Below the pieces are notes generated by a model, which was not told where the DNA came from, did no database searches, and saw only the letters and a program-made list of their open reading frames with translations. Position numbers and translations under genes: made by a program. Shown piece after piece: positions 23,077-48,356 of a DNA stretch of 64,000 nucleotides. Origin of the DNA: an uncultured Acidobacteriota bacterium (GTDB lineage Bacteria > Acidobacteriota > Terriglobia > UBA7540); NCBI GenBank assembly GCA_963831905.1, contig CAWHRX010000002.1, forward strand, positions 140,150 to 204,149. Reading direction: 5' to 3'. Every line of letters starts with the position of its first letter. The first letter of the stretch is position 1.

Positions 23077-27420
<4,344 letters not shown>

Positions 27421-28378: not shown

Positions 28379-30367
28379 GTGCCTGAATTACCCAACGACC
28401 AAGCGCTCGAAAAGTACCGGCAAGCCTTCCAGGAAGAGGCGCGCGAGGTTCTGGTCGAACTGGAATCGGCTCTGCTGGAACTGAACGAGAATCAGAACGA
28501 TCAGGGTTTGGTGGGCCGCGTTTTCCGGGCTTTGCATACGATCAAGGGCTCCGGGTCGATGTTCGGTTTCGACGAGCTGGCCGCCTTCGCGCATGACCTG
28601 GAAACAGCCTTCGATGAAGTCCGCGCCGGGCGCCTCAATGTCACCTCAGGGCTACTGGATGTGGCCTTAATGGCGCTTGACCAGATTAAGGCCATGCTGG
28701 AGGAAACGGCCGGCGGGCCGCCCGCGGACCGGGTGGTCTCTGGCGAAATCCTGGTAAAGCTCCATGCGTTGACCGGATTGTCGGAATCATCAGCCGCCCG
28801 GGAAGCCGCCCCTGCGCCGCAGGCTCCCCTGAGGGCTGCCGGTGCGCTGAGCACCTGGAAAATCCACTTTTGCCCCGGCCCTGATCTGCTGCGAAACGGC
28901 GCCAATCCAATGCTGCTGTTGGGCGAGTTGAAGCCGTTGGGGGAATTGCACGTTACCGCCAGCATGGCGGCGATCCCGCGTCTGGAGGAGTTGGACCCCG
29001 AGCGTTGTTACATAAGTTGGGACATGCTGCTGACGACCGCTGCCGGTCGCGAGGCGATCCGGGATGTCTTCATCTTCGTGGAAGATTCCTGTGAGCTGAG
29101 CATCGAGCCGGATTTGGCCCCCCGCGAGCACGCTGCGGAAGCGCTTCCGAGCACCCCGCAAGAGCGACGTGGCGGCTACGGACGCCGCGCCTATGACAGC
29201 CCTGACAATGCTTCGAGTATTCGCGTGCCGGCCGCCCGGCTCGACCAGTTCGTCAACCTGGTGGGTGAACTGGTCACGGTGCAAGCGCGCTTGGGAGAGG
29301 TGGCAGCCCGGCGCGATGACGCTGAGGTGACGGCAGTCTCTGAGGAGATCGAGCGCTTGACAGCGGCGCTACGCGAGAACTCCATGAGCATTCGCATGTT
29401 GCCGATCCGCGCTACCTTCGAACGTTTCCGGCGCCTGGTTCACGACTTAGCGCGAGACTTGCACAAGGAAGTGGATCTGACCATTGAGGGCGGCGATACC
29501 GAGTTAGACAAAACCGTGATCGATCAGTTGAACGACCCGCTGATGCATCTCATTCGCAACAGCATGGATCACGGCATCGAGCCGCCTGCGGACCGCATCG
29601 CCGCCGGCAAGCCGGCCACCGCAACCCTCTGCCTTTCAGCGAAACACTCGGGCGCCACCGTCCTGATCGGCGTCTCTGACGACGGGGCAGGCATCAATGC
29701 GGAAGCGGTTCGCGCCCGGGCAGTCGAAAAAGGCCTCATGGCAAGCGATTCCCAACTGACAGAGAGCGAGATCCTGTCTCTGATTCTGGCGCCCGGGTTT
29801 TCCACTGCCCAGCAGGTCACGGATGTCTCCGGAAGAGGAGTCGGCATGGACGTGGTGCGGCGCAACGTGGAGGCGCTCCGCGGAACTGTTGAGATCGCGA
29901 GCAGACCCGGCGCCGGGACCAACGTCACCTTGCGCTTGCCCCTTACCATGGCGATTATCGACGGATTGCTGGTGCGCATCGGGCCGTCCTATTTCGTGAT
30001 GCCGCTTGCGACCACCCTCGAATGCATCGAATTGACCCATCAGGATGTCGAGAAGGCCAACGGCAAGCACCTGGCGGACATCCGAGGCGAACTGGTTCCC
30101 TATATTCATCTCAGGGAGTACTTCAACATCCACACGGAACGCCCTGAGCGGGAACAGATTATGCTGACCGAAACCGAGGAGGGGCGCTACGGCTTCGTGG
30201 TGGATCAGGTGCTTGGGGACCATCAAACCGTGATCAAGAACCTGGGGCGGGTGTACCGGCACGTTCAAGTCATCTCCGGCGCGACCATCCTCGGCGATGG
30301 ATCCGTGGCGTTGATTCTGGATCCCCATCGGCTGGCCCAGGAGGCCATCCGCGCCACAGCGGAGTGA
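28379..30367 (+). CDS. cheA: chemotaxis histidine kinase CheA
   Basis: Hpt motif LHTIKGSGSMFG, HATPase motifs (DDGAGI, GRGVGMDVV) and a C-terminal CheW-like domain. GTG start. Confidence 0.9.
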   Translation: MPELPNDQALEKYRQAFQEEAREVLVELESALLELNENQNDQGLVGRVFRALHTIKGSGSMFGFDELAAFAHDLETAFDEVRAGRLNVTSGLLDVALMALDQIKAMLEETAGGPPADRVVSGEILVKLHALTGLSESSAAREAAPAPQAPLRAAGALSTWKIHFCPGPDLLRNGANPMLLLGELKPLGELHVTASMAAIPRLEELDPERCYISWDMLLTTAAGREAIRDVFIFVEDSCELSIEPDLAPREHAAEALPSTPQERRGGYGRRAYDSPDNASSIRVPAARLDQFVNLVGELVTVQARLGEVAARRDDAEVTAVSEEIERLTAALRENSMSIRMLPIRATFERFRRLVHDLARDLHKEVDLTIEGGDTELDKTVIDQLNDPLMHLIRNSMDHGIEPPADRIAAGKPATATLCLSAKHSGATVLIGVSDDGAGINAEAVRARAVEKGLMASDSQLTESEILSLILAPGFSTAQQVTDVSGRGVGMDVVRRNVEALRGTVEIASRPGAGTNVTLRLPLTMAIIDGLLVRIGPSYFVMPLATTLECIELTHQDVEKANGKHLADIRGELVPYIHLREYFNIHTERPEREQIMLTETEEGRYGFVVDQVLGDHQTVIKNLGRVYRHVQVISGATILGDGSVALILDPHRLAQEAIRATAE

Positions 30368-30545: not shown

Positions 30546-33059
30546 ATGGCCACGAAAGTTCTGACTGAAAACCGAAAGTTCCAGAGCGCTGATGCGGGCA
30601 ACGGTGGAAGCGGACGAGCCGCGCGCGGCCGCATCGGCAGCTCGCAGAAAGCGCAAGACACCGACTTGCTGCTGGTGTCTCAGGAAATTATGCGCCTGGT
30701 TGATGCGTCAAAAGAAGGCCGTCTTACCGAGCGCGGCAGGGCTGACCAGTTCGACGGCGTTCACCGCGAAATCGTACAAGGCATCAACGAAATGCTGGAT
30801 GCCATCCTGTTACCGATTGGCGAAGGCAACCGCGTACTGGCGCAAATCTCCAGCGGCAAGATCGACGAACTGATTGCCCAGACTTACCGGGGCGATCACG
30901 AGAAGATGAAGCAGGCGGTGAATAACGTTGCGGCGGTGCTGCAAGGGCTGCAGAAGGAATTGGTGCGCCTTATCGAGGCGTCGAAGGACGGGCAGCTCAG
31001 CGAGCGCGGCAAGCCGGAGCAGTTCCAGGGGGCGTTCGCGGAGATTGTGCGGGGCGTCAACACGATGCTGGATGCCATCCTGCTTCCCATTGGCGAAGGC
31101 AACCGCATACTGGCGCAAATCTCCAGCGGCAAGATCGACGAACTGATTGCTCAGACTTACCGGGGCGATCACGAAAAGATGAAGCAGGCGGTGAATAACG
31201 TTGCGGTGGTGCTGCAAGCGCTGCAAAAGGAATTGGGGCATCTCATCGAGGCCTCGAAGGACGGGCAGCTCAGCGAGCGCGGTAAGCCGGAGCAGTTCCG
31301 GGGAGCGTTCGCGGAGATTGTGCGAGGCGTGAACACGATGCTGGATGCCATCCTACTTCCCATTGGCGAAGGCAACCGCATACTGGCGCAAATCTCCAGC
31401 GGCAAGATCGACGAACTGATTGCCCAGACTTACCGGGGCGATCACGAGAAGATGAAGCAGGCGGTGAATAACGTTGCGGCGGTGCTGCAAGGGCTGCAAA
31501 AGGAATTGGGTCGTCTCATCGAGGCCTCGAAGGACGGGCAGCTCAGCGAGCGCGGCAAGCCGGAGCAGTTCCAGGGGGCGTTCGCGGAGATTGTGCGGGG
31601 CGTCAACACGATGCTGGATGCCATCCTGCTTCCCATTGGCGAAGGCAACCGCATACTGGCGCAAATCTCCAGCGGCAAGATCGACGAACTGATTGCCCAG
31701 ACTTACCGGGGCGATCACGAAAAGATGAAGCAGGCGGTGAATAACGTTGCGGTGGTGCTGCAAGGGCTGCAAAAGGAGTTGGTACGCCTCACCGACGCTT
31801 CCAAAGAGGGGCGGCTCGCCGAGCGGGGAAAGTTCGAGCTCTTCCAAGGCGCCTACGCTATCATCGTGCGCGGCGTCAACGGTATTCTGGATGCCGTCAT
31901 AACTCCGCTCAACGTGGCGGCCCAGTATGTGGACCGGATCAGTAAGGGCGACGTACCGCCGCAGATCACTGACACCTACCACGGCGACTTCAACAACATC
32001 AAAAACAACCTGAACACGCTGATCGTGGCGATGAACGACGTAACCAAGGCGGCGGAGGAGATTGCGAATGGCAATCTGACCGTAACCATCAAGGAGCGGT
32101 CGGCGGGGGACAAGCTGATGCAGGCGCTCAGTTCCATGGTGGCGGGCCTGACGCGCACGGTCTCAGACGTTCGCACCATCGCCGGCGAGGTGGCGTCGGC
32201 GAGCCAGGCCATCAGCACGGCTTCGGTGCAAGTGTCGAACGGAGCCAGCGCGCAGGCGGCCTCGGCGGAGGAAGCTTCCTCCTCGATGGAGCAGATGGTG
32301 TCCAACATCAAGCAGAACGCGGATAACGCCCAGCAGACCGATAAGATCGCGAACAAGTCGGCGAAGGACGCGCAGGAAAGCGGCAAGTCAGTGGCGGAGG
32401 CGGTAGCGGCGATGAAAGAGATTGCCAGCAAGATCTCGATCATTGAGGAAATCGCCCGGCAGACGAACCTCCTGGCGCTGAACGCCGCCATTGAAGCGGC
32501 ACGCGCCGGAGAACACGGGAAGGGATTTGCCGTGGTGGCGGCGGAAGTCCGCAAGCTCGCCGAACGCAGTCAGAAGGCGGCGGGCGAGATCAACCAACTC
32601 TCGGGCACGACGGTGAAGGTCTCGGAGAAGGCCGGGGAAATGCTCGAGAAGCTGGTGCCCGATATCCAGAAGACGGCGGAACTGGTGCAGGAAATCAGCG
32701 CCGCCAGCAAGGAACAGGATACGGGCGCCGAGCAGATCAACAAGGCGCTCCAGCAGCTTGAGAAGGTCATTCAACAAAACGCGTCAGCGTCGGAAGAGAT
32801 GGCTTCGACCACCGAGGAGTTGACCGGCCAGTCCGACCAGCTTGTCAGCGCCCTTGGATTCTTCCACATCGGCGACGAGAGGCAGGCTGCGTCGGCGCGG
32901 CCCGCCGGCCCCAAGCCCGCCAAGCGGGCCGAAGGCGCACCGGGAAAGCCTCCGAAGCCCAATGGCCAAGCCGCATTGAAAGCCGCCGCCAAGGCCGGAG
33001 TGAATGTCGCTCTCAGTGAAAAGGGCGATGACCTTGACAAGGAATTCGAGCGCTACTGA
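30546..33059 (+). CDS. soluble methyl-accepting chemotaxis protein with repeated helical modules
   Basis: Canonical tip [34 protein letters not shown]. No hydrophobic TM-length segment. The N-terminal half is built from 91-aa repeats. Confidence 0.9.
30696..31787 (+). repeat. four in-frame tandem 273-bp units inside the MCP gene
   Basis: The marker CGAAGGCAAC recurs at 30821, 31094, 31367 and 31640, a period of exactly 273. Antisense shadow ORFs repeat with the same period. Confidence 0.95.
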
Positions 33060-33120
33060 CGGGATGGGCGCGCACTGCCGCCGGTCCGCGCCCGCCGACA
33101 GAATGCGAAAGGAGCTGATT

Positions 33121-33633
33121 ATGAGCGTGAGTGAAATAACTGAGACACGGCAGTATCTGACCTTCAAGCTGGGCAACGAGGTTTTCGCCACCGACGTCGC
33201 GAAGGTGAGGGAGGTGCTTGATTTCACGACCATCACGGCTATTCCCAGGACGCCCGAGTTCATGAGCGGGGTCATCAACCTGCGGGGCAGCGTGGTTCCC
33301 GTGGTGGATTTCCGCCTCTGTTTCGGAATGTCGAAGACCGAGCGGACCCGGAATACGTGCATCGTCGTTGTGGAAGTGGTGCTGGACAACGAATCAACCG
33401 TGATCGGCGCGCTGGCCGATTCCGTCGAGGAGGTGATCGATCTCGAACCGGAACAGATTCAACCGGCGCCCAGGATCGGGACCCAGATTCGGACCGATTT
33501 CATCAAGGGGATGGGAAAGCGAGACACGCAGTTCATCATGATCTTGGATATCGATCGGGTCTTCTCGACCGAGGAGTTGGCAGCGGTGCGGGCGCCGGAC
33601 GGCGGCAAAGCGCTTGCTGAAGTAGCCGCTTGA
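33121..33633 (+). CDS. cheW: chemotaxis coupling protein CheW
   Basis: ATG 33121 is preceded by AGGAG. It has QYLTFKLGNEVFATDVAKVREVL. Confidence 0.9.
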   Translation: MSVSEITETRQYLTFKLGNEVFATDVAKVREVLDFTTITAIPRTPEFMSGVINLRGSVVPVVDFRLCFGMSKTERTRNTCIVVVEVVLDNESTVIGALADSVEEVIDLEPEQIQPAPRIGTQIRTDFIKGMGKRDTQFIMILDIDRVFSTEELAAVRAPDGGKALAEVAA

Positions 33634-33670: not shown

Positions 33671-34528
33671 ATGAGCCATCATGAGGCAACGATCTCGAAC
33701 GCGGACTTTGGCCGGCTTCGCCGCTTGATCTACGAAGAGTCGGGCATCAACCTGAATTCCGATAAGAAGACGATGCTCGAGCTTCGCATCAAGCGGCGAA
33801 TGCGGACCCTCAATTTGAATTCGTACGCGGAGTATTGTGAGTATCTGTTCGGGAGCCGTGGGCAAAAAGAGGAGGTCGTACACCTAATTGACGTTGTCAC
33901 CACGAATAAGACCGATTTCTTTCGCGAGCCGGCGCACTTCGAGCTTTTGGTGCAACGAGTTATTCCGGATGTCTGGACGGGGAGCCAGAGCGGCGGGGAA
34001 CTGTCGGTCTGGAGCGCGGCCTGCTCGACCGGCGAGGAGCCTTACACGCTGGCGATGGTGCTCAGTGAGTACGCGTCAGCGCATCCCGGGTTTCGCTTCC
34101 GAATTCTGGCGACGGATGTCTCCATGACCGTGCTGGCAAAGGCAAAGCTGGGAGTTTACAGCCTGGAAGCGGCGGGCCCCGTCTCGCGCAACCTGCAGCG
34201 AAAGTACTTCATGCGTAGCCGCGATCCAGAATCCGAATCGGTGCGGGTGGTTCCGGAACTGCGGCGACTCGTGGAGTTTCGGCGGCTGAACTTCATGGAT
34301 GAAGACTTCTGCCTGGCGCAGAAGGCCGAAGTCATCTTCTGCCGGAACGTGCTGATCTATTTCGATCGGCCAACCCAGGAGAAGTTCCTGCAAAAGCTGA
34401 CACGGTACCTTCTGCCTGGGGGCTATGTTTTTGTCGGCCACGCGGAGACCTTGCACGAAATGAATATCCCGCTCGTGGCCGTTGCGCCGACCCTTTATAG
34501 GAAAGTCGATGTTCGACACCGAAATTGA
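33671..34528 (+). CDS. cheR: chemotaxis protein methyltransferase CheR
   Basis: It has TNKTDFFRE and VWSAACSTGEEPYTLAM. Confidence 0.9.
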   Translation: MSHHEATISNADFGRLRRLIYEESGINLNSDKKTMLELRIKRRMRTLNLNSYAEYCEYLFGSRGQKEEVVHLIDVVTTNKTDFFREPAHFELLVQRVIPDVWTGSQSGGELSVWSAACSTGEEPYTLAMVLSEYASAHPGFRFRILATDVSMTVLAKAKLGVYSLEAAGPVSRNLQRKYFMRSRDPESESVRVVPELRRLVEFRRLNFMDEDFCLAQKAEVIFCRNVLIYFDRPTQEKFLQKLTRYLLPGGYVFVGHAETLHEMNIPLVAVAPTLYRKVDVRHRN

Positions 34529-35036
34529 ACTGGCGGAGGTATACCTGCAACCTGGGGAAGCCTATCTGGCCCGGAAGCCGACCATTATCCGAACGCTTCT
34601 AGGTTCCTGCGTGGGGGTCACCTTCTGGAGTCCCAGGCTCGGCTGTGGAGCCCTTTGCCACGCTCTGCTGCCGAGATGCCCCAAGAACCCGCGCCACGGC
34701 ATTACACTTGCGGACGGCTATCGCTTCGTCGATTTCTCGATTCGTGAACTGGGGCGGAAGTTCGACAAACTCGGGGCGTTGCGCGGAGAGGTGGAAGTCA
34801 AGCTGTTCGGCGGCTCTGACGTTCTTCCCGTCAGCCATGCAGTGACACGGCCGGCGACGGTAGGCAAGCAGAATTGTGAGGTTGCGATGGAAGCAGTGGA
34901 AGCCGAAGGGTTCCAGTTGGTGGCCTCGAGCCTGGGCGGCACGCGCGGCCGCAACATTCAATTCAACACCGGAACCGGTGAAGTGCGCCTCCGCTGGTTG
35001 TCGCGTGCGGTTTTGGAACGGAGTTTCGAGCGATGA
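34509..35036 (+). CDS. cheD: chemoreceptor glutamine deamidase CheD
   Basis: ATG 34509 overlaps the end of cheR. It has LGSCVGVTFW...GALCHALLP with the catalytic Cys/His pattern. Confidence 0.85.
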   Translation: MFDTEIELAEVYLQPGEAYLARKPTIIRTLLGSCVGVTFWSPRLGCGALCHALLPRCPKNPRHGITLADGYRFVDFSIRELGRKFDKLGALRGEVEVKLFGGSDVLPVSHAVTRPATVGKQNCEVAMEAVEAEGFQLVASSLGGTRGRNIQFNTGTGEVRLRWLSRAVLERSFER

Positions 35037-35184: not shown

Positions 35185-36270
<1,086 letters not shown>

Positions 36271-36349: not shown

Positions 36350-38089
36350 ATGAATGGGGATCGTAGAACCGAGGTCATCGAAGTGCTGAGGCGCGCCAAA
36401 GATGAGCTTGCGACGCTGGGGCGCACGGCTGCAACTGAGATCGAGTCGGTGGTGAGAGCCTTCGAAAACATTGCGGGTCACGCGGAGACCATTCTGAGTT
36501 TAGCCGGCGCGATTGTGGGCTGCGTGGAGGGCGAAAGCGTAAACTCGGTCTTGCCCAAGGTGCAAACCCTGGGAGCGACTGCCAAGCAGTGCATTGGAGA
36601 GCGTGTGCAGGCGACAGCCAGGATTCTGGAGGCGGTGTCGATGGAAGGACGAGTTCTGAGGCAACTCTCGGAGGTCACTCGCGGCCAGGAGGCGATCGCT
36701 CTCGAGACCAGGGCTCTGAGCATTCTCACCAACGTCGAGGTGGCTCGATTGGGAGCGGAAGGCGAAGGTTTCGAGTATCTGGCGCGCGAGTTGGCCGGCT
36801 TCTCGAAATCGGTGGCCGAGGATACACACGAAATCGCCTGCCACAGGGACGCCCACGCGGTGGCCGTCGAGGAAACCCGTCGTGTCCTGACCAGCGAACT
36901 TCCCCGCCTGCGCAAGGAGTTTGCCCGTATGGAAGAGGCTTTGGGCGAGGCGTTATCGGCGGTCACCTCCGCCCTGGAACGGCTTTCCAGGACGCCGCTG
37001 CGTTTTCGGGAGTGTGTGAAGGACGTCGCCCGCGAGATCGCCGGGGTGGTGACGGCCATTCAGGCTCACGACATCACACGCCAGCAAATCGAGCATGTGC
37101 AGGAGGCACTTACGCTGATCGCAGCGAGAGTGAGCGGGGCCGGAGACCAGGAGGACGGGCCGGCCAATGAGCTGGGAACTGCCTACGCCGGGCTAACCAT
37201 CCAGGCTTATCAGTTGCGATCGAGCAGAGAAACCGTGGCCGGTTGGGCGGCGCAGATCCGCACTTGCATCGAGGGAATCCTGAAGGTGAGCGCTTCCGAG
37301 GTAGTGGGGATCGGGCCCGCGGTGCTGGAAGGGGAACGGAACATCTCCGCGGAGCTTGCGCACATCGAAAAGCTGGAACGCGACAGTCTGGCTTACAGTG
37401 AAAACATCCAGCGCACCTTTGGCGGGCTCGCCAGCCTCGTGCAACTGGTGAGCGACCACCTGAAAAGGTCAACGTCCATCCGCGATCACTTGCAACTTCT
37501 CACCTTCAACTCGATTATCGAGGCCAACCGGTTGGGCAGGCGGGCCGCGGCGATATTGGCGATCGCCAACAGCATTAAAGATATCTCGGCCGGATGGGCC
37601 CAGGTTACCTCGCAGTCCGAACACTCCATGCAGGAGGTCAAAAGCCTGGAGCAGGGGACAGGTGAATTGATGGGGGTGTTTTCCGCGGCCCGGAACGCAC
37701 AACTGAGGGAAGCGCAGAAGGAAACGGGCTCGGGCCTGGAAGCCTTACGAGCCGCCGCCGACTTCGCGGCCAGGCAGGCGCAGGAGACACAAGGCTCCAC
37801 GGAGAAAATGCAGGCCGAGACCTCGGAGGTCGAGCGGAGTGTCGGTCTTTTTGACTCGTGTTTCAGCCGCATCGATGCAGTCGTGAACGAAATAGAAGGC
37901 TTAAGGCGGGAGTGGGAGACGAACAAACCCGATGTGAAAACGTGTTACAACGTCGGACAAGTGGAAGAGTTGTTCGGGTCATCGTACACCACGGAAACGG
38001 AGCGCGCCGTGCTGCGCGCTGCCCTGGCCGGCGAACCCCTGCCGGTGGCGAAGTCATCGTTTGAAGGGAACAGTGTCGAACTTTTTTAA
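36350..38089 (+). CDS. soluble MCP-signalling-domain-like protein with two degenerate hairpin-tip motifs
   Basis: aa 120-154 (TRALSILTNVEVARLGAEGEGFEYLARELAGFSKS) and aa 381-413 (LQLLTFNSIIEANRLGRRAAAILAIANSIKDIS) both align without gaps to the MCP tip signature. No TM segment. Confidence 0.6.
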   Translation: MNGDRRTEVIEVLRRAKDELATLGRTAATEIESVVRAFENIAGHAETILSLAGAIVGCVEGESVNSVLPKVQTLGATAKQCIGERVQATARILEAVSMEGRVLRQLSEVTRGQEAIALETRALSILTNVEVARLGAEGEGFEYLARELAGFSKSVAEDTHEIACHRDAHAVAVEETRRVLTSELPRLRKEFARMEEALGEALSAVTSALERLSRTPLRFRECVKDVAREIAGVVTAIQAHDITRQQIEHVQEALTLIAARVSGAGDQEDGPANELGTAYAGLTIQAYQLRSSRETVAGWAAQIRTCIEGILKVSASEVVGIGPAVLEGERNISAELAHIEKLERDSLAYSENIQRTFGGLASLVQLVSDHLKRSTSIRDHLQLLTFNSIIEANRLGRRAAAILAIANSIKDISAGWAQVTSQSEHSMQEVKSLEQGTGELMGVFSAARNAQLREAQKETGSGLEALRAAADFAARQAQETQGSTEKMQAETSEVERSVGLFDSCFSRIDAVVNEIEGLRREWETNKPDVKTCYNVGQVEELFGSSYTTETERAVLRAALAGEPLPVAKSSFEGNSVELF

Positions 38090-38196
38090 ACCGTGCCTGG
38101 CCTTCGTCAGAAGGGTTTTACGCCGCCCTGGCCGCGCAAGGGAACGTATTCGGCTAGCGCAGCCCGCCAGTCGGGCCCTGAGGGTTGAAGGTCACG

Positions 38197-38559
38197 ATGA
38201 AACGAATCTTAGCCGTGGATGATTCCGCCAGCATCCGGCAGATGGTCGGCTTCACCCTGCGCCAAGCCGGGTACGACGTGGCCGGTGCGGTCGACGGTCA
38301 GGACGCCCTTGGCCAGGTCGGGAAAGAGAAGTTTGATCTGATCATTACCGATCTTAATATGCCCAATGTAGATGGCATTCAACTGATTACGGCCGTCCGT
38401 AAACTTCCGGGGTGCTCGTTTGTGCCTATCCTTATGTTGACCACAGAGTCGCAAGCGGAAAAAAAGGACGCAGGACGGAAGGCCGGCGCCACCGGATGGA
38501 TCGTGAAGCCGTTTAATGCCGATCAGTTGATTGCCGTGGTGAAGAAACTGGTGAAATAG
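38197..38559 (+). CDS. cheY: CheY-like response regulator
   Basis: ATG 38197 (MKRILAVDDS). It has ITDLNMPNVDG, LMLTTES and KP. Confidence 0.85.
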   Translation: MKRILAVDDSASIRQMVGFTLRQAGYDVAGAVDGQDALGQVGKEKFDLIITDLNMPNVDGIQLITAVRKLPGCSFVPILMLTTESQAEKKDAGRKAGATGWIVKPFNADQLIAVVKKLVK

Positions 38560-40024: not shown

Positions 40025-41425
40025 ATGATTCTGAAGCAGTACTACCTTGGCTGCCTGGCCCACGCTTCCTATCTGCTGGGAGACGAGGCTAGCTCGACGG
40101 CCATCATCGTGGATCCTCAGCGCGACGTCCAGCGGTACCTCGACGAAGCCGAGAGATGTCATCTTCAGATCCGCCACGTCTTCCTCAGCCACTTCCACGC
40201 CGACTTTGTCGCGGGCCACCTGGAGTTGCGCGACCGTTGCGGCGCAACCATCCATCTTGGCTCCCGCGCCGAGGCGGAATACGCCTTTACGCGGATGAAC
40301 GACGGCGACACGCTGGAGTTCCCTGGGCTGCGCCTGCAAGTGGTGGCGACTCCCGGCCACACCATCGAGTCAATCTCCATCCTGGTGTTCGATCTTGAGA
40401 AGGATGGGACAAAGCCGTTCGCCGTCCTCACGGGTGATACGCTGTTTATCGGGGACGTTGGCCGCCCTGATCTCCGGGCGTCGCTCGGGTGGAGCGCCAA
40501 CGAACTCGGCGCTCACCTTTACGACTCGCTGCACAACAAACTCCTGGCACTTCCAGATGAGACGCTCGTCTACCCCGCTCACGGTTCGGGCTCGCTGTGC
40601 GGAAAAAATCTTTCCTCGGACACCGTTTCCACGCTGGGAGTCCAAAGGCGCATGAACTACGCGCTCCAGCCCATGACGAAAGAGGAATTCATTCGCCTAG
40701 TCACGGCGGATCAGCCGGACGCTCCCCCGTATTTCAGCTTCGACGCTGTTCTCAACACTCGCGAGCGTGCCCAGCTAGATAAGAATCTCGAGCAAGTCCT
40801 CCGCCCCATTGAGCTGGACGAAGTCGTGCGACTGGGAGATACCGGGGCTCAGATTCTCGACGTCCGCGATCCCCTCGAGTACGCCAAGAATCATCTTGCC
40901 GGCAGTATCAACATCGGCCTCGGCGGCCAGTACGCCACGTGGGCAGGCACAGTCCTCGACCGAGCCAAGCTCATCGTGATCATCGCCGCGCCCGGACGCG
41001 AGCATGAGGCCGCGCTGCGCTTGGGCCGCATCGGTTTCGATCACGTCGGAGGCTACCTCAAGGGAGGGATGGAAGCGCTGGCCGGCCGGCCGGACCTGGT
41101 GTGGCAAACGGAGCAAGTGAGCCCGCTCGTGGCGGCAGAGGAACTGGCGAGTGCCGAGGCTCCCCTGGTGCTGGATATCAGAACTCCCCGTGAGTGGTCA
41201 ACCAAGCACATTGCCGGAAGCGTGAACATCCCGCTCAACCACCTGCAGGAGCGCATCGCCGAAATCCCCCGCGACCGCCGCATCGCAGTGCATTGCGCGG
41301 GAGGTTATCGCTCCTCGATTGCGGCCAGCATCCTGCACCAGTACGGGATCACGAGTCTGATTGAGATGGCAGGCGGCCTCGCCGCCTGGGAGGCCGCTAA
41401 ACTTCCCCTGGCTTCCGAAAGATAG
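40025..41425 (+). CDS. MBL-fold hydrolase fused to two rhodanese domains (persulfide dioxygenase-sulfurtransferase-like)
   Basis: HFHADFVAGH metal motif. The C-terminal rhodanese domains include the active-site loop CAGGYRS. Confidence 0.75.
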   Translation: MILKQYYLGCLAHASYLLGDEASSTAIIVDPQRDVQRYLDEAERCHLQIRHVFLSHFHADFVAGHLELRDRCGATIHLGSRAEAEYAFTRMNDGDTLEFPGLRLQVVATPGHTIESISILVFDLEKDGTKPFAVLTGDTLFIGDVGRPDLRASLGWSANELGAHLYDSLHNKLLALPDETLVYPAHGSGSLCGKNLSSDTVSTLGVQRRMNYALQPMTKEEFIRLVTADQPDAPPYFSFDAVLNTRERAQLDKNLEQVLRPIELDEVVRLGDTGAQILDVRDPLEYAKNHLAGSINIGLGGQYATWAGTVLDRAKLIVIIAAPGREHEAALRLGRIGFDHVGGYLKGGMEALAGRPDLVWQTEQVSPLVAAEELASAEAPLVLDIRTPREWSTKHIAGSVNIPLNHLQERIAEIPRDRRIAVHCAGGYRSSIAASILHQYGITSLIEMAGGLAAWEAAKLPLASER

Positions 41426-41514: not shown

Positions 41515-42651
41515 CTACTGGTTGACGTGAACGACGGTGGCAGGCGGAAATCCGTTGAACCAGGTCGAAGAAGCATTGCTGTAGGCGCCGATGTTTTCCG
41601 AATAGACCAGATCATCGATTTGGAGGTCAGGCAATTGCTCGGATTGCGAGATGGTGTCCAGACCATCACAGGTTTGCCCGTAGACCGCGCAGACTTCGGT
41701 CGGGCCTTTTTTGAACGCCTTGAGATGATATTGGCAATGGTCAAAAATGATGCCGGAAAACGTGTGATAGACGCTGTCGTCAATGAAGTAGCAGAGCTTT
41801 CCATCGCGCACCGCTTTGCCCAGGATCCGGGCGACGAGGGTCGCGGCCGTGGCAACGAAAAATCTGCCCGGCTCCGCGAGGATTTGCATGTCTTGCGGGA
41901 ACAGTCTGTCGATCTCGGCGTTGATCATTCTGGCGAGCAGGCTGAAGGGCTTCACATGCCGATCGTAGGCGACGGGAAAGCCGCCCCCGATGTCGAGGAT
42001 CTTGATGGCATGGCCGCGCGTGTTCGCCTCTCGCAAAACCGCGGCTGCAATATTCAGAGCCTGAACGAAGTTCTCGAAGTTGGCGCACTGGCTGCCCACG
42101 TGAAAGCTCAGTCCCTCGACCTCCAATCCCATTTCGAAGGCAGCGCAGATCAGGTCCACCGCTTCTCCCGCGTCACAGCCGAATTTGGACGACAACTCCA
42201 CCATTGACCCGGTGTTGGGAACTCGCAAGCGAAGCACAACGCCCGCGTGTGGGGCGTATTGTTTGATTTTCAGCAGCTCGTTGCGGTTGTCATAGGTGAC
42301 GAGGGGCTTGTAGCGGTCAAGCGCCTGGAGGGTCTCCTTGGGTTTAGTCGGATTGGCGAAAATGATTTTGTCCCAGATAAAGTCTTGCTGTTCCTTGGGG
42401 GGAAGGTGTTTTATGTTTTCATAAACCAGCATGAACTCCGGAAGCGAGGCGACGTCGAAACTGGCCCCCGCGTCGAACAAAGTGCGCACTATCTCCCGCG
42501 CCGGATTCGCTTTTACAGCGTAATACGCCTGAACTCGAGGAAGGCGCCTCTTGTATTTGGCATAGTTGCGGCGGATGATCTCGTGATCGATCACCACCAC
42601 GGGCGTCCCGTGCTGCGCGGCGATTGCTTGAAGCTGGCGGGTTGTAGCCAT
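41515..42651 (-). CDS. PLP-dependent Orn/Lys/Arg decarboxylase (group IV, ODC-like)
   Basis: ATG 42651. It has YAVKAN (PLP lysine), GGGFP and a conserved Cys in the C-terminal beta-barrel region. Confidence 0.8.
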   Translation of the reverse strand: MATTRQLQAIAAQHGTPVVVIDHEIIRRNYAKYKRRLPRVQAYYAVKANPAREIVRTLFDAGASFDVASLPEFMLVYENIKHLPPKEQQDFIWDKIIFANPTKPKETLQALDRYKPLVTYDNRNELLKIKQYAPHAGVVLRLRVPNTGSMVELSSKFGCDAGEAVDLICAAFEMGLEVEGLSFHVGSQCANFENFVQALNIAAAVLREANTRGHAIKILDIGGGFPVAYDRHVKPFSLLARMINAEIDRLFPQDMQILAEPGRFFVATAATLVARILGKAVRDGKLCYFIDDSVYHTFSGIIFDHCQYHLKAFKKGPTEVCAVYGQTCDGLDTISQSEQLPDLQIDDLVYSENIGAYSNASSTWFNGFPPATVVHVNQ

Positions 42652-42719
42652 AAGCGCCTCTCTTCGTCCAGCACCTGTAGGGCCCAGCAACGCTGGGCTT
42701 GGCCGAACGCTGTTCGGCC

Positions 42720-44036
42720 CTACTCGTCAACGACGGGATCCGTGCCGTCGAGCATTTTCACTTTGTTGTGCGTGAAGTATTCTTTGGTCAGCGCCTTCAT
42801 CATCTGACCGCGCTGGTCGTAAAGCCTTCGCAATTCCCGCCGTGGGTGCCTGGCAAGCGCATAATGCGTGAGGATCGGCATGGCGATGGTCGTATCCGTG
42901 TAGCAAACCACCGCATCGGGCAGGCGGTCGGGATCCACTTTGCCCCAGCTTACCGCTTCGCTGGGAGTAGCTCCGCTCAGTCCGCCCGTGTCCGGACGCG
43001 CATCGGTGACCTGCAAGAAATAATCCATCCCAAACTCCTTGATGCGCAGCACCTCCTGAATCTGAGGTTCCGTCTGGAGCATGAAGTTTTTGGGGCTGCC
43101 TCCGCCCCATAGAACTACGGCGCTCTTGCCTCCGGACCGTTTCGCAGCAAGAACGTAAGCGGTTGACTCATTCACGTCGATCGACGGATTCACACGCAGC
43201 TTATTGCCGCGCAATTCTACGCCGGCCACGTTCATCCCAATGGTTGAGTCGCCGGGCGACGAGGTGAAGCAGGGCACGCCGGCGCGATAGGCAGCGGCCA
43301 ATACGGAAACGTCCTTGAGGCCCGCCTTGCGCTCCCACTCGGCGGCATACTTGCCCAGCAGATGGTGCAGTTCGCCGGTGCCCATTTCCTTCTGGAATTC
43401 GGGTTGAGTAAGAATGTTGCGCAGAATTTCATCCGTCGCCATCAGGCAATCGCTGTAACCGAGCAGAACGTCGTACACGCGCACGATATCGTTGTCGCGC
43501 AACTCCGTGTCGTCCATGGTGAAGTTTCCTGCACGCACTGGATAGTTCAAGGCAAAATGCATGTCGTGATATAAATTGGCGCCGGTCGAGACAATCCAGT
43601 CCACAAATCCGGCTTTGATCAGGGGAACGATGCAAGAGCACCCCAACCCGGCCGGTGTGAGCGCCCCCGATAGCGTCATGCCGATCGTGACGTCCGGCTC
43701 CAGCATCCTTTCCACGAACAGCTTGCAACCCTCTTTGAGGCGGGCCGAGTTGTAGGCAAGAAACACCTCGTCCACGATGTCAGGAAGCTTCTCTTTGCCG
43801 GTCAGATTCTTGGGGAGAATGCGCTTTCCGGCGAGGAAGCGGTCGCGGTTCGGGCACTTCTTCTTTTTCATCCAATCGGGCATTTCCGACATGTCTTCGC
43901 GATAACGATGGTGTGACTTTTGGGCTTTAGCCATGATCTGATCGAATTCCTCCATTGAATATAGCGCGACTTTCGGCCGCGGCCACAAGGGCTTCTCCGT
44001 GGACTCTGTGCCTGTAGAAGCACCAACACAGAGCAT
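42720..44036 (-). CDS. deoxyhypusine synthase-like protein (possible homospermidine-type aminobutyl transferase)
   Basis: It has [26 protein letters not shown] and WGGGSPKNF, typical of the DHS family. The start is uncertain (44036, 43955 or 43934). Confidence 0.7.
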
Positions 44037-44257
44037 ACGGAGACGCTCAGTGTGCTCTGTGTTTTATCTTTCGTTTGGCACAAAGAGAACGGAGACAAAT
44101 CTTCGCGGCTCGCGACGAAACTCCGTATTTGTAACACAACGAAACGCTCGAATTGAATTTGGGCATCGAGTCCATTAGACTAGCACAGCGAGCCGACCGG
44201 GGAAAAGCGTGCAACGCGATTCGGCAGGAACTGGTAGCGAACTCCAGCGGGAAAGTA

Positions 44258-45331
44258 ATGAATAATTCAAAAAACACGCCGTCTGCAAAGGGCTTCTCGA
44301 TGCCCGCGGAGTGGGAGCGACACGAAGCGACGTGGCTCGCTTGGCCTCATAATCCCACCGACTGGCCGGACAAGCTCGATACGATTTGCTGGGTCTACGG
44401 CGAAATCGTGCGCAAAATTTCGCCCGGTGAGCGCATCAGGATGCTGGTCAATTCAGCGGCTGCCGAGAAGACCGCGCAGCGCTACCTGAAGCGCGCCGGA
44501 ACTGACCCGACGCGTGTCGAGTTCATCAGGCACCCAACCAATCGCGGCTGGATGCGGGACAGCGGGCCCATCTTTGTTCGGCGCCAGCGGAAACGAAGTA
44601 TCGAAACCGCCATCGTGCATTTCCATTTCAACGCCTGGGCCAAGTATTCCGACTGGAAGAAAGATCGACAGGTGCCTGAAGTTGCGGCCAGACACCTCTC
44701 CAAGCGTCTCTTCGACGCGCAGATCGGCAACCGTAGTTTCGTCCTCGAAGGGGGTGGAATCGAAGTCAATGGGCGCGGGACCTTGTTGACGACTGAAGAG
44801 TGCTATTTGCAATCGGAAATCCAGGTCAGGAATCCTGGCTTGGACCGGAAAGGCTTTGAAAAAGCACTCGACGATTATCTCGGTGCGACCAACGTCTTCT
44901 GGCTTGCGGGTGGCGTCGCCGGGGATGATACCCACGGCCACGTTGATGACATCTGCCGTTTCGTCGATCGAAAGACCCTTGTCCTCATTAAGGAGGAGAA
45001 TGCCGCGGACGTTAATTATGGCTCGCTCGCGGAAAACTGGGACCTCATTCAGGATCTGCGACTTGAGGATGGTTCCAGGCCGGAGGTCATCGCGCTGCCT
45101 ATGCCCGGCCCGATCTATTTCGACGGTGACAGACTCCCGGCGAGTTATGCAAATTTCTATATCGCCAATCAGGCTGTGCTGGTGCCCACCTTCAACGATC
45201 CCAAAGACCGCCTGGCGCTTGGACTCCTTGGCGAACTATTCAAGGATCGTACCGTAGTGGGTGTCCATGCCGTTGATTTGGTGCTGGGTTTCGGGACGCT
45301 GCATTGCCTGACACAGCAACAGCCCGCTTGA
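44258..45331 (+). CDS. aguA: agmatine deiminase
   Basis: ATG 44258. It has MPAEWERHEATWLAWPH near the start and GTLHCLTQQQP (catalytic Cys) at the end. Confidence 0.85.
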   Translation: MNNSKNTPSAKGFSMPAEWERHEATWLAWPHNPTDWPDKLDTICWVYGEIVRKISPGERIRMLVNSAAAEKTAQRYLKRAGTDPTRVEFIRHPTNRGWMRDSGPIFVRRQRKRSIETAIVHFHFNAWAKYSDWKKDRQVPEVAARHLSKRLFDAQIGNRSFVLEGGGIEVNGRGTLLTTEECYLQSEIQVRNPGLDRKGFEKALDDYLGATNVFWLAGGVAGDDTHGHVDDICRFVDRKTLVLIKEENAADVNYGSLAENWDLIQDLRLEDGSRPEVIALPMPGPIYFDGDRLPASYANFYIANQAVLVPTFNDPKDRLALGLLGELFKDRTVVGVHAVDLVLGFGTLHCLTQQQPA

Positions 45332-45455: not shown

Positions 45456-48356
45456 CTAGGAGCTGCCGGCGGTTGACCCGCAATTCATGCAGCGATACGA
45501 GGTGCCGTTGCGCGGCATGATAGCGCCGCACTCGGAGCAACAGAGAGCGTCGTCGGACAACTCCACACCCGCAAGGCTGGGCTGTATGGAACCATCAGGA
45601 TATACCGTGGCGCGCTCCCCAGTCGAGGGCGTGAACTGCGTGGCCAGCCCGTTGGCCTCCTCGGTGGGCTGGGCGTGGCCCGAGAGGAACTTGATCGCCA
45701 GCCAGCGGAAGATGTAGTCCATCACCGACTTCGCCATGCGGATGTCGGGATTGGGTGTCCAGCCGCTGGGCTCGAAACGAGAATGGCTGAACTTGTCACA
45801 GAGCACTTTGAGCGGCACGCCGTACTGGAGTGCCAGTGAGACGGCGGTGGCGAAGGAATCCATCAGACCCGAAACCGTCGAGCCTTCCTTCGCCATGGTT
45901 ATGAAAATCTCGCCCGGAAGCCCCTCTTCGTACAAGCCCACCGTGAGATAGCCTTCGTGGGCGCCGATCGAAAACTTGTGGGTGATGGCGCGGCGTTCAT
46001 CGGCCAGCTTCCGGCGGTAAGGCTTAGCAGGGGCTAGGGGCTGGGGAGCGCGGGCTTCCAGCCCGCCTGCGGCCAAGATGGCCGCGCTCCCAGGTGCTGG
46101 GGCTTCTGAATCCTGAATCCTGGATCCTGACTCCTGTTTTTTCGTGTTGAGCGGTTGGGTGCGCTTCGACCCGTCGCGGTAGATCGCGATGGCCTTCAAC
46201 CCCAGGCGCCACGCCTCGATGTAAGCGTTAGCAACGTCCTCGACCGTCGCTTCTTCCGGCATGTTGACGGTCTTGGAAATCGCGCCGGAGAGGAACGGCT
46301 GCACCGCCGCCATCATGCGCACGTGGCCCATATAAGGGATGGCGCGCTTTCCGTTCGCTGGCTTAAGCGAGCAATCGAAAACCGGTAGGTGTTCCGGCTT
46401 CAAGTGGGGGGCGCCTTCGATGGTGCTTTGCTGGTCGATGTAGTTGACGATCTCCGCGGCCTGCTCCTCACTGTAGCCCAGCTTGAGCAGCGCCGTGGGC
46501 ACGACATTGTTCACGAGCTTGATCACCCCTCCGCCCACCAGCTTCTTGTATTTCACCAGTGCCAGGTCGGGCTCGACGCCGGTGGTGTCGCAATCCATCA
46601 TGAAGCCGATCGTGCCCGTGGGCGCAAGCACCGTGACCTGCGCGTTGCGGTAGCCATACTTCATGCCGCTGGCCAGGCAATCGTCCCAGGCTTGCTTCGC
46701 CGCGTCCCAGAGGCTGGGCGGCACGTAGCGCGGGTTGATGTTCTCAAGCGACTGGCGGTGCATGGAAATAACGCCCAGGAAGGGATCGCGGTTGACGGCG
46801 TAGCCGGCGAAGGGGCCAATCTCCTCCGCGATACGCGACGATTGGAGATAGGCTTCGCCGTGCATCACCGCGGTAATGGCAGCAGCCGCGTCGCGCCCCG
46901 CGTCGGAATCATAGGGAAGGCCGCTGGCCATCAGCACCGCGCCGAGGTTGGCATAACCCAAGCCCAGCGGGCGGAAATCGTGGGAGTTGCGCGCGATTTT
47001 CGCCGTAGGATAACTCGCGTTGTCGATCAGAATTTCCTGCGCGGTGATCATTACGTCCACGGCGTGCCGGAAGCCCTCGGTGTCGAACTTGCCGTCGGGC
47101 GCGAGGAACTTCATCAGGTTAAGGGACGCCAGGTTGCATGCTGAATCATCCAGGAACATGTACTCGCTGCAGGGGTTCGAGGCGTTGATGGGCGCGGTAG
47201 CTTTCGAAGTGTGCCACTTGTTGACCGTGGTGTGGAATTGCACGCCCGGGTCGCCGCACTGCCAAGCGGCTTCCGCGATTTTCTTCATCAGGTCGCGTGC
47301 GCGATGGGACGTGTCGGGCTCGCCCGTGGTGATCCGGTGTGTGACCCAATCCTTATCCTCGATGACGGCCCTCATGAAATCGTCGGTGACGCGCACGCTG
47401 TTGTTGGCGTTCTGGAAAAAGATGGAGCTATACGCCTCTCCTCCCAGCGATGGGTCATAGCCGGCATCCACCAGCGCCCATGCCTTGCGCTCTTCCTTGA
47501 CCTTGCACTGGATGAACTCCTCGATGTCGGGGTGATCGATGTTGAGGATCACCATTTTGGCGGCGCGTCGCAATTTGCCGCCCGATCTGATCACCCCCGC
47601 AAACGCGTCGTAGCCTTTCATAAACGAAAGGGGACCGGAGGCCATGCCGCCGCCTGACAGCGACTCGGCCGAGGAACGGAGGGCCGAGAAATTCGTACCG
47701 CTGCCCGAGCCATACCGGAAGAGCATCCCCTCGGTTTTCGCCAGCTCGAGAATGCTTTCGAGGTTATCCTGGACGGAGTTGATAAAGCAGGCCGAGCACT
47801 GCGGATGCCGGTAGGCTTCAGTCTCCTTTTTGATCTCGCGCGCGGCGGGGTCCCAATAGAACGCTCCTCCCGCACCGCTGCGGCGGTACTTGTGCCACAA
47901 CCCGCAATTAAACCAAACCGGAGAATTGAACGAAGCTTTCTGGCGAACCAGCAGGTGGAGCAACTCGTCGTGGAACGCCCGGGCGTCTTCTTCGCTGCGA
48001 AAGTATCCGTCATCGACGCCCCACTGGGCGATGGTGTCCGCCACGCGGCTGAGGAGCTGCTTGAGGCTCGACTCGCGCTCGGCCGTTCCCAACTTGCCGT
48101 GAAAATACTTGGAGGCCACGATGTTCGTAGCGGTCTGCGACCAGTCTCTCGGCACTTCCACGTTGCGCTGCTCGAAGATTACCTTGCCTTTTTCGTTCTG
48201 AATGGTGGTGGTCCGCAATTCCCACTCGATTTCGTCGAAGGGATGAAAGCCGGGTTTGGTAAAAAGGCGTTTGATCCTCAAGCCGTGTTCAACCTGCGTT
48301 TGCATCTCGGAAGTAGCAGATTCTGAGGCTGTGGAGACAGCCCGCTCTTCAGACAT
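45456..48356 (-). CDS. nrdJ: class II (adenosylcobalamin-dependent) ribonucleotide reductase
   Basis: 966 aa. It has NPCSEYMFLDDSACNLASLNL and a C-terminal Cys-rich tail (CCSECG...CMNCG). Confidence 0.85.
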   Translation of the reverse strand: MSEERAVSTASESATSEMQTQVEHGLRIKRLFTKPGFHPFDEIEWELRTTTIQNEKGKVIFEQRNVEVPRDWSQTATNIVASKYFHGKLGTAERESSLKQLLSRVADTIAQWGVDDGYFRSEEDARAFHDELLHLLVRQKASFNSPVWFNCGLWHKYRRSGAGGAFYWDPAAREIKKETEAYRHPQCSACFINSVQDNLESILELAKTEGMLFRYGSGSGTNFSALRSSAESLSGGGMASGPLSFMKGYDAFAGVIRSGGKLRRAAKMVILNIDHPDIEEFIQCKVKEERKAWALVDAGYDPSLGGEAYSSIFFQNANNSVRVTDDFMRAVIEDKDWVTHRITTGEPDTSHRARDLMKKIAEAAWQCGDPGVQFHTTVNKWHTSKATAPINASNPCSEYMFLDDSACNLASLNLMKFLAPDGKFDTEGFRHAVDVMITAQEILIDNASYPTAKIARNSHDFRPLGLGYANLGAVLMASGLPYDSDAGRDAAAAITAVMHGEAYLQSSRIAEEIGPFAGYAVNRDPFLGVISMHRQSLENINPRYVPPSLWDAAKQAWDDCLASGMKYGYRNAQVTVLAPTGTIGFMMDCDTTGVEPDLALVKYKKLVGGGVIKLVNNVVPTALLKLGYSEEQAAEIVNYIDQQSTIEGAPHLKPEHLPVFDCSLKPANGKRAIPYMGHVRMMAAVQPFLSGAISKTVNMPEEATVEDVANAYIEAWRLGLKAIAIYRDGSKRTQPLNTKKQESGSRIQDSEAPAPGSAAILAAGGLEARAPQPLAPAKPYRRKLADERRAITHKFSIGAHEGYLTVGLYEEGLPGEIFITMAKEGSTVSGLMDSFATAVSLALQYGVPLKVLCDKFSHSRFEPSGWTPNPDIRMAKSVMDYIFRWLAIKFLSGHAQPTEEANGLATQFTPSTGERATVYPDGSIQPSLAGVELSDDALCCSECGAIMPRNGTSYRCMNCGSTAGSS
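46044..46136. repeat. palindrome plus heptamer tract embedded in-frame in nrdJ
   Basis: The 10-bp inverted repeat is GGGAGCGCGG (46044..46053) and CCGCGCTCCC (46082..46091). CTGAATC CTGAATC CTGGATC CTGACTC follows at 46106..46133. Confidence 0.8.

Follow-up and report, generated by a model that had tools for sequence, protein, structure and literature searches.

A tandem chemoreceptor signalling-domain protein with a CheZ-like motif, encoded between cheB and cheY in an uncultured Acidobacteriota bacterium

The locus and protein X

We analysed a stretch of 64,000 nucleotides (nt) from an uncultured Acidobacteriota bacterium (Terriglobia; UBA7540), namely positions 140,150 to 204,149 of the forward strand of contig CAWHRX010000002.1 (assembly GCA_963831905.1), which as a whole is called here the window. 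The object of the analysis was an intact open reading frame (ORF), here called X, which sits in a chemotaxis (che) cluster between cheB (35203-36270) and cheY (38185-38559). The original prediction, made from the letters of the window, described X as an orphan protein with two degenerate copies of the hairpin-tip motif of methyl-accepting chemotaxis proteins (MCPs); it took X for either a diverged double-tip scaffold or a receptor mimic. Our results describe X as two complete MCP signalling hairpins in tandem, within a large family whose best-kept residues include a CheZ-like DxxxQ block, and they make X a candidate phosphatase of phosphorylated CheY (CheY~P). The features of X are as follows (aa, amino acids; h1 to h4, the four long helices; DCA, direct coupling analysis; AF2, AlphaFold model).

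36350-38089, + strand: ORF X, tandem MCP-signalling-domain protein with a CheZ-like motif, 579 aa; ATG at 36350, stop codon at 38087-38089
36362-37138, + strand: hairpin 1, aa ~5-263 (h1, aa ~8-137; turn, ~137-138; h2, aa 138-263); hhalign against the window MCP, E 2.6e-12; best DCA antidiagonal, s = 273-276
36707-36811, + strand: tip-1 motif, aa 120-154, keeping E130, R133, G135, G138, G140 and F141
37043-37099, + strand: invariant block G232-V250, GVVTAIQAHDITRQQIEHV, with DxxxQ (D241, Q245), on h2
37139-37159, + strand: inter-hairpin linker, aa 264-270, variable, rich in Gly, Asp and Pro, predicted loop
37160-37924, + strand: hairpin 2, aa 271-525 (h3, aa 271-398; turn, ~398-400; h4, aa 400-525); hhalign against the window MCP, E 3.6e-12; DCA s = 796-799
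37190-37267, + strand: conserved h3 patch, aa 281-306 (G281, Q285, Q288, L289, W299, Q302, C306)
37490-37588, + strand: tip-2 motif, aa 381-413, keeping N387, E391, R394 and G396, with GxGF lost
37985-38029, + strand: conserved C-terminal helix, YTTETERAVLRAAL, family consensus YT[TM]ExER; AF2 helix at aa 549-560
38066-38086, + strand: C-terminal tail GNSVELF, family consensus G[ND][SN]V[ED]LF, proposed CheY-capture peptide

Full-length homologues of X aligned with it from M1 through the C-terminal F. A degenerating pseudogene was considered for X and rejected, because its length and motifs are kept across phyla.

Two signalling hairpins in X

The two segments singled out by the original prediction were found at the positions listed above, and both resemble receptor tips. 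Precisely, in gapless BLOSUM62 comparisons with the tip of the MCP of the same cluster (MCP aa 640-675), tip 1 scored 50 with 11/36 identical residues, a score reached in 0/1000 shuffles, and tip 2 scored 38 with 9/36 identical residues, reached in 1/1000 shuffles; the third-best position in X scored just 11. From these scores we considered the tip resemblance real and specific. The residues kept in tip 1 (E130, R133, G135, G138, G140 and F141) are equivalent to Tsr E385, R388, G390, G393, G395 and F396, and those kept in tip 2 (N387, E391, R394 and G396) correspond to Tsr N381, E385, R388 and G390. The tips are therefore asymmetric: tip 1 has GxGF and lacks the N381 equivalent, having L126 where this residue would be, and in tip 2 the reverse holds.

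Scanned alone, X matched the Pfam MCPsignal profile (PF00015) with 21.7 bits, the gathering score being 34.6, and the match covered aa 83-238, that is the first half only; the second half alone gave E 0.2. X alone also matched T. maritima Tm14 (3g6b) at E 4e-4, and a profile of the Terriglobia members of the family matched solved MCPs, namely 2ch7 (TM1143) through aa 349-529 and 3g67 through aa 54-215. We then used a family-wide alignment of 78 sequences, distant relatives included, for comparing each half of X with the signalling domain of the window MCP and the two halves with each other. The alignment of aa 1-266 with the MCP domain had Prob 97.7 % and E 2.6e-12 over 245 columns, that of aa 267-530 had Prob 97.6 % and E 3.6e-12, again over 245 columns, and the two halves aligned with each other almost without gaps (Prob 98.8 %, E 7.6e-17, 254 columns). 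The half-against-half comparison was weak with a shallow alignment restricted to Terriglobia (E~0.01-0.02) and became decisive after distant relatives were added. MCPsignal matched 70/78 diverse members (best E 1.7e-22, up to 76 bits), distant members lying above the threshold, and the distant members P0258, P0271-P0274, P0310 and P0326, scanned singly, had two MCPsignal stretches each. The profile search proposed with the original prediction thus returned, for X alone, one hit below the threshold, and, for the family profiles, matches with both halves; the two tips predicted there turned out to belong to two complete signalling hairpins, which account for all of residues 1-530.

In the Pfam scan of X we found no domain besides MCPsignal, and in particular no input module (ligand-binding, HAMP or PAS). 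As had also been predicted, X has no transmembrane segment, the maximum of its Kyte-Doolittle 19-residue window being 1.57, and no methylation site: the methylation/deamidation consensus [ASTG]2-x2-[EQ]2-x2-[ASTG]2 had 0 matches in X vs 3 in the cluster MCP, and was found in at most 3/78 family members at any position. Judged from its sequence, X is thus, on solid grounds, a tandem duplication of the complete MCP signalling hairpin, and, equally solidly, a soluble protein with no sensor of its own rather than a methyl-accepting sensor.

Family distribution and conservation

X is not an orphan, as had been supposed, but one of hundreds of homologues forming a multi-phylum family. A word-indexed search gave 468 relatives; the best 120 of these 468 were nearly all ~579 aa long (few were truncated) and at least 51 % identical to X, and their named sources were Terriglobia/Acidobacteriota metagenome-assembled genomes. 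In an exhaustive hidden Markov model search of 1.84 billion cluster representatives, 3455 proteins passed E <= 1e-3 and 990 of them passed E <= 1e-10, and these matches included full-length relatives down to 17-25 % identity. A pattern scan of the GTDB species genomes gave at least 444 confirmed X-family loci. Among the matches listed, the family was present in Desulfobacterota (Geobacter, Desulfovibrio, Syntrophobacter and others), Nitrospirota (Thermodesulfovibrio, Magnetominusculus), Planctomycetota (Kuenenia), Ignavibacteria/Melioribacteraceae, Acidobacteriota and others.

Members of the family are usually annotated as "methyl-accepting chemotaxis protein" or "hypothetical". We found no dedicated model for the family in NCBIfam and no description of it in the literature, where the motif strings FQDITRQ, DITRQQ and NVELF yielded nothing relevant; a literature search for receptor-like phosphatases likewise gave nothing. 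The suggestion that the sequence type may be undescribed is in agreement with these searches, with neither a paper nor a curated family model found.

One member of 574 aa is encoded at 8776-10500 of locus L086, on a plasmid/chromid (CP132317.1) of Shinella sumterensis (Alphaproteobacteria). It carries MQIGDITRQRIEH, YTMVSERDVH and the C-terminus EDALF, and its gene is divergent from a group of STAS, response regulator, CheA and CheW genes plus three MCP genes. Its GenBank label, "type VII secretion target", is almost certainly wrong and owed to helical-hairpin similarity.

We counted residue conservation over 289 full-length members. In the h2 block, Q245 was present in all 289, D241 in 288, Q238 in 284, R244 in 280, Q246 in 275 and H249 in 271; on h3, Q285 was kept in 288, and in tip 2, N387 in 289. 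The C-terminal helix kept Y546 (286), E551 (286) and R552 (287), and the tail F579 (287), L578 (279) and G573 (277). The family signature reads [AS]xQx[HQ]D[IM]TRQQxEHV on h2 and continues with Q285/Q288 on h3, at the height of DxxxQ, then with the YT[TM]ExER helix and the terminal G[ND]xV[ED]LF. The strongest conservation is hence that of the DxxxQ block, the YTxExER helix and the VELF tail, the tips being weaker. As for the conservation of both tip motifs among orthologues, proposed as a check in the original prediction, it stands for N387 (289/289), and the three best-kept features had been missed there.

Helix packing

Both AF2 models of X were confident and all-helical, as the protein had been expected to be (the second model with a predicted local distance difference test, pLDDT, of 87.3 and a predicted template modelling score, pTM, of 0.65). 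The only long helix break in them is at aa 264-270, the linker between the hairpins, where pLDDT is low; the length and composition of this linker differ among homologues, and a DCA turn centre falls at 264-269. The linker preceding the tail is also of low confidence, with pLDDT <50 for aa 570-579. The turns at the two tips come from DCA, at the centres 138 and 399.5, with no tip break in the secondary-structure assignment (DSSP).

For the covariation analysis, mean-field DCA was run on the 289 full-length members (effective number of sequences, Neff, 199), and the local C-terminal region was ignored for the antidiagonals. The best antidiagonal centres were 138 (p 2e-6), 399.5 (p 2e-5) and 264-269. 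An independent scan for each helix pair then gave the following registers.

h1-h2: antiparallel, s = 273
h3-h4: antiparallel, s = 796-799
h2-h3: antiparallel, s = 532
h1-h4: antiparallel, s = 531
h1-h3: parallel, d = 263
h2-h4: parallel, d = 259

These registers had z values of 4.1-6.6, and control scans in the wrong orientation reached at most 4.9. The h2-h4 register (z 4.1) was the second-best offset in its own scan, and the other five were the best offsets. All six are mutually consistent to within one heptad, which implies four in-register helices of ~126 residues (aa 8-137, 138-263, 271-398 and 400-525). The h2-h3, h1-h4 and h1-h3 couplings are equal in strength to those within the hairpins, so that a parallel extended dimer is incompatible with them. 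In fact, a fold-back monomer and an antiparallel domain-swapped dimer give an identical contact map, from which that of a parallel rod of the DosM type differs.

X therefore probably adopts one of two forms, a fold-back pseudo-dimer (a "single-chain receptor dimer") or a swapped dimer that is antiparallel, and in either form its tips would be specialised for array docking. The fold-back form, with both tips at the same end in imitation of a receptor homodimer, is the most likely. It is favoured by the inter-hairpin linker, variable in length and composition and predicted to be disordered, by the position of the AF2 breaks at aa 60-66 (h1) and 312-320 (h3), level with the conserved P216 on h2, and by the equal height of the conserved h2 and h3 patches. 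As for the latter, height mapping in the fold-back model placed the h3 patch level with the DxxxQ block, which lies on h2 about 100-112 residues from tip 1, and the DCA pairs 237-303 and 220-310 were within the top 20.

Resemblance to CheZ

In CheZ, two helical hairpins dimerise into a four-helix bundle; an AXXFQ motif precedes the DXXXQ active site, and a linker leads to the CheY-binding helix at the C-terminus (PMC7750401). In the annotated K-12 genome, E. coli CheZ reads ...MMAQDFQD143LTGQ147VIKRMMDVI... and ends in ...DDLLDSLGF. The Pfam CheZ profile (PF04344) matched 16/78 members of the X family at E <= 0.1 (best E 1.3e-6, 28.9 bits), and in eight separate matches the invariant Asp fell at profile position 129-130, E. 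coli D143 being at 129-132. Two NCBIfam CheZ models matched weakly at the same site. With hhalign, D241/Q245 of X were set on D143/Q147 of CheZ, in a hydrophobic register pairing I242 with L144, I247 with I149, V250 with M152 and L254 with I156. Upstream of DxxxQ, 288/289 members have A or S at the place of A236, and position 240 holds H in 248/289 and Q in 22/289; in some distant members the stretch is ALQFQDITRQ.

Gene neighbourhood

The remaining genes of the window cluster, all of which accompany X on the same strand, are listed below; cheB, given above, lies between cheD and X.

28058-28369, + strand: STAS protein (CheS-like)
28379-30367, + strand: cheA
30546-33059, + strand: soluble poly-HAMP MCP
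33004-33633, + strand: cheW, single-domain, 209 aa
33671-34528, + strand: cheR
34482-35036, + strand: cheD
35203-36270, + strand: cheB
38185-38559, + strand: cheY, single-domain receiver, with DD12/13, D57, T87 and K109 all present

The order in the window is hence STAS-CheA-MCP-CheW-CheR-CheD-CheB-X-CheY. Terriglobia homologues 51-53 % identical to X had exactly this order, followed by a PAS-rich hybrid kinase and a receiver, and in other phyla the order was X-(STAS)-CheY-CheA-MCP-CheW-CheR-CheD-CheB. Among 61 evaluable loci of other phyla, cheY lay at most 2.5 kb downstream of X on the same strand in 55, and cheA at most 3.5 kb from X in 56; the linkage of X to che genes, which the original prediction had asked to be surveyed, was seen in every homologue examined. 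In gene order and in having CheD, these clusters are like classes F7/F8 and unlike F9. The "DLNMPN" loop of the window CheY is akin to the corresponding loop of E. coli CheY.

The cluster MCP is a soluble protein of 837 aa with five HAMP_2 repeats (poly-HAMP, Aer2-like) and three methylation-consensus sites, in which we detected no PAS or other sensor domain; its end, ...DKEFERY, is a possible variant of the CheR/CheB-tethering pentapeptide, with F/Y for W/F. The cheW ORF overlaps the gene before it by 56 nt and the cheD ORF does so by 47 nt, and their domains begin only at aa 50 and aa 77, so that the true starts of both genes are probably further downstream.

The STAS-only protein of the window matches CheS of S. 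meliloti/Agrobacterium by domain and position, and a STAS gene lay between X and cheY in 16/61 related loci. CheS of alphaproteobacteria binds CheA and speeds the dephosphorylation of CheY1 (PMC12654446). The distribution of these genes suggests that CheS-type modules are far wider than Alphaproteobacteria.

Just upstream of the che cluster, a hybrid histidine kinase of 1447 aa (23077-27420, + strand) has 3 REC, 4 PAS, HisKA, HATPase and Hpt domains, and in the Terriglobia loci L001, L003 and L004 cheY is followed directly by a similar PAS-rich kinase and a receiver. Being linked to the cluster in both arrangements, the kinase may be an output or an input branch. A diguanylate cyclase (DUF4118-PAS-GAF-GGDEF; 19005-20720, - strand) is also near the cluster, and no flagellar genes were found near the cluster in the window, which hints at a non-flagellar output of cyclic di-GMP or biofilm type.

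Locus L002 (ERZ25039548 contig_20643, 5.05 Mb) and L001 are one locus in two assemblies. In L002, cheA, the MCP gene, cheW and cheR are split into short ORFs, with X, cheB, cheD and cheY intact; the splitting most likely reflects long-read indel errors and no biology.

Further downstream in the window there are genes of polyamine type (41515-45331), namely an Orn/Arg/DAP decarboxylase (41515-42690, - strand), a deoxyhypusine-synthase-like protein, probably homospermidine synthase-like (42720-44036, - strand), and a PAD_porph protein of agmatine-deiminase type (44153-45331, + strand). Two housekeeping genes encode a metallo-beta-lactamase/rhodanese fusion (40025-41425, + strand) and a class II (B12-dependent) ribonucleotide reductase with a TSCPD domain (45456-48356, - strand).

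Proposed role and alternative explanations

We propose that X may be an array-resident, receptor-derived CheY~P phosphatase that works through the DxxxQ block and the C-terminal tail, a reading that draws on conserved motifs and profile alignments and to which we give an even chance. Precisely, the two hairpins would pack as one four-helix bundle that mimics a receptor homodimer, with its two differently degenerated tips adjacent, and these tips would dock X among the cluster's poly-HAMP receptors, CheW and CheA. About 100-115 residues from the tips, h2 would present the invariant block QxHD241ITRQ245QxEHV, flanked by Q285/Q288 of h3. The VELF tail, on its flexible arm, would capture CheY~P as it is produced by adjacent CheA, and D241/Q245 would then enter the CheY active site and position the hydrolytic water, as D143/Q147 of CheZ do. 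X would thus terminate signalling at its origin, and it possibly acts on CheB~P too. Of this scheme, we infer the docking in the array, the binding of CheY by the tail and the catalysis.

Several results weigh against the proposed fold or against the likeness to CheZ. In the DSSP strings of both AF2 models there is no break at aa 136-138 or 396-400; these strings neither confirm nor exclude U-turns at the tips, and a straight helix of 197 residues would leave ~100 residues unpacked, which misfits a pLDDT of ~90 and a pTM of 0.65. A Foldseek comparison of both models with the PDB gave nothing at E <= 1e-3 and returned generic long-helix proteins, with MCP chains having a high "prob" yet a poor superposition on the models. 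The DCA signals are modest, and repeat-equivalent couplings could partly reflect shared partners in place of contact. As for CheZ, X itself has no Pfam CheZ match and none of the 78 members scanned reaches the gathering score of 30.7; the hhalign comparison of the family with CheZ is weak (P~0.01-0.03) and relies on a shallow CheZ alignment, made of relatives 71-100 % identical to E. coli CheZ and nearly all enterobacterial. Two coiled-coil families, DUF1664 and Baculo_PEP_C, match as many members as CheZ does, so that part of the CheZ signal is compositional. Finally, AXXFQ is kept only in part, position 239 being F in 60/289 members (A in X), and the tail of X has no similarity to DDLLDSLGF of CheZ beyond the terminal Phe.

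We weighed three other explanations. X could be a structural staple similar to DosM, whose tips recruit CheW/CheA and nucleate or stabilise a cytoplasmic array of poly-HAMP receptors with no catalysis, the distal block being an interaction surface, for example for a STAS/CheS-like protein, CheD, CheR or CheB. Such a role would suit the domain architecture of X, equal to that of DosM (two MCP signalling domains, no sensor), the length of its helices, near that of the partner MCP signalling domain, and the solubility of the only MCP of the cluster; moreover, the antiparallel swapped dimer, having the same contact map, would be a double-ended rod. Yet the top conservation (DxxxQ, Q285, YTxExER, VELF) lies away from the tips, the tips themselves are degenerate (tip 1 without the N381 equivalent, tip 2 without GxGF), the gene order is unlike F9 with no triple-domain CheW, the h2-h3, h1-h4 and h1-h3 couplings are strong where a parallel rod predicts none, and the near-universal adjacency to cheY would be left unexplained; we therefore regard the staple as rather unlikely. 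The same conservation of DxxxQ, YTxExER and VELF favours a catalytic, phosphatase role of X over a purely structural one. Of the scaffold or mimic first envisaged, the double tips were found.

The other two explanations concern the invariant block itself. In one, the bundle would be a receptor decoy or adaptation regulator that mimics the substrate helix and binds CheD, CheR or CheB, as CheC does for CheD, and the VELF tail, acting like the tethering pentapeptide, would bind CheR/CheB in place of CheY. C-terminal tethers of the NWETF type serve CheR/CheB, and the tail of X is likewise aromatic-ended on a flexible linker; cheD, cheR and cheB are all in the cluster, X follows cheB, and the invariant pair Q245/Q246 could be a substrate of CheD/CheB. 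Nevertheless, the surroundings of Q245/Q246 misfit the methylation/deamidation consensus, of which there is no conserved site in the family, the tail lacks the Trp of xWxxF, and in the wider family X stands apart from cheR, cheD and cheB, beside cheY and cheA, so that a decoy seems improbable. In the other, X would be a phosphotransfer or kinase-like module of the dimerisation and histidine phosphotransfer type, with H240-D241-x-x-x-Q245 as a HisKA_3-type H-box and H240 accepting or relaying phosphate between CheA, CheY and a hybrid kinase. The HisKA_3 H-box has the pattern H-D-x-x-x-Q, which X shows on a four-helix bundle, and a large hybrid histidine kinase with Hpt is linked to the cluster. 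We rejected H240 as a phospho-His because it is not invariant, 39/289 members having Q, N, E or D at this position, whereas D241 and Q245 are invariant; with no HisKA_3 or HATPase match found, the whole explanation appears very improbable, and the DxxxQ of HisKA_3 itself serves the phosphatase reaction, so that also this explanation converges on a phosphatase.

Implications

Many non-enteric chemosensory systems have no recognised off switch for CheY~P, and Geobacter clusters and ancestral F7 systems have been noted as lacking CheZ. We tentatively suggest, as a broader and more doubtful step than the role proposed for X itself, that the X family could be an unrecognised class of receptor-scaffold CheY~P phosphatases (a pseudo-dimer with docking tips, a distal DxxxQ block and a capture peptide), which would supply the "missing" phosphatase of CheD-containing systems similar to F7/F8 and would be a living intermediate that points to an origin of the CheZ four-helix bundle in the MCP signalling domain. 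If this were true, the "missing phosphatase" would concern Acidobacteriota, Desulfobacterota, Nitrospirota, Planctomycetota and others, and the gap would be filled for a large part of bacterial diversity; signal termination would be wired into the receptor lattice in a new way, and the origin of CheZ would be tied to receptor signalling domains. If the role of X were only structural, the family would join DosM as a second and far commoner kind of protein with two signalling domains, whose topology is apparently different. With its asymmetric tips, X, as a naturally occurring "single-chain receptor dimer", could also serve for separating the protomer at the trimer axis from the protomer at CheW/CheA.

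Comparison with known systems

In outline, both a receptor-like protein with two signalling domains and a phosphatase with DxxxQ are known; the combination found in X, its likely topology, the family motifs and the wide distribution appear undescribed in the resources that we searched.

The closest precedent for the architecture is DosM (V. cholerae VC1403, class F9), which, like X, is a cytoplasmic protein with tandem MCP signalling domains and no sensor, encoded within a che cluster. Class F9 has DosM together with a triple-domain CheW (CheW3), the order M-W3-B...R-Y-A, no CheD and 44H receptors. The cluster of X differs in having a single-domain CheW (209 aa; the CheW matches in related loci, of ~450-600 nt, are also of single-domain size), CheD, the order STAS-A-M-W-R-D-B-X-Y and arms of ~126 residues in X; moreover, X carries DxxxQ, YTxExER and VELF, which are not reported for DosM, compared here by its description, and the covariation in X speaks against a parallel double-ended rod of the DosM type. 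We therefore rejected the membership of X in F9/DosM, given the lack of CheW3 and the different gene order, and of the analogy with DosM drawn in the original prediction we retain the domain architecture and not the F9 CheW3, the F9 gene order or the parallel rod. The soluble receptor IcpA/MCP514 (Atu0514) has the operon position that X takes in other phyla, being the first gene in che operons of alphaproteobacteria and followed by the STAS-only CheS, cheY1 and cheA, but equivalence with X was rejected, since it has a protoglobin and a single signalling domain.

CheT of S. meliloti has no significant homology to known chemotaxis proteins, has DXXXQ and a CheZ-like predicted structure, dephosphorylates one CheY and binds CheR (PMC12654446). 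CheT (Sinorhizobium meliloti / Agrobacterium orf10) resembles X in its place in a che operon and in its DXXXQ, and is a precedent for a function inferred from the motif; unlike X, it has no reported MCP signalling domains or receptor tips, as far as the two can be set side by side by description.

With CheZ, X shares long helical hairpins in a four-helix bundle (probable for X), a surface DxxxQ on the C-terminal helix of a hairpin, in the same hydrophobic register and preceded by A-x-x-(F)-(Q/H), and, on a flexible linker, a conserved C-terminal peptide whose last residue is Phe; both genes adjoin cheY. Unlike X, with its 579 aa, tandem MCP-type hairpins and receptor tips, CheZ is a homodimer of single hairpins of ~214 aa, and in E. 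coli it reaches the array via CheA-short and not via receptor-like tips. A CheW:CheZ fusion is listed for class F17. Both this fusion and E. coli CheA-short place the phosphatase in the receptor array, as we propose for X; there the tether is CheW or CheA, whereas in X it would be a receptor-like bundle.

Finally, the cytoplasmic MCP signalling domains (Aer2-type poly-HAMP, TM1143, Tm14) are homologous to each half of X in both arms and tip. With respect to canonical MCPs, X lacks an input or HAMP domain and the methylation consensus, has degenerate tips and two hairpins per chain, and carries the additional motifs.

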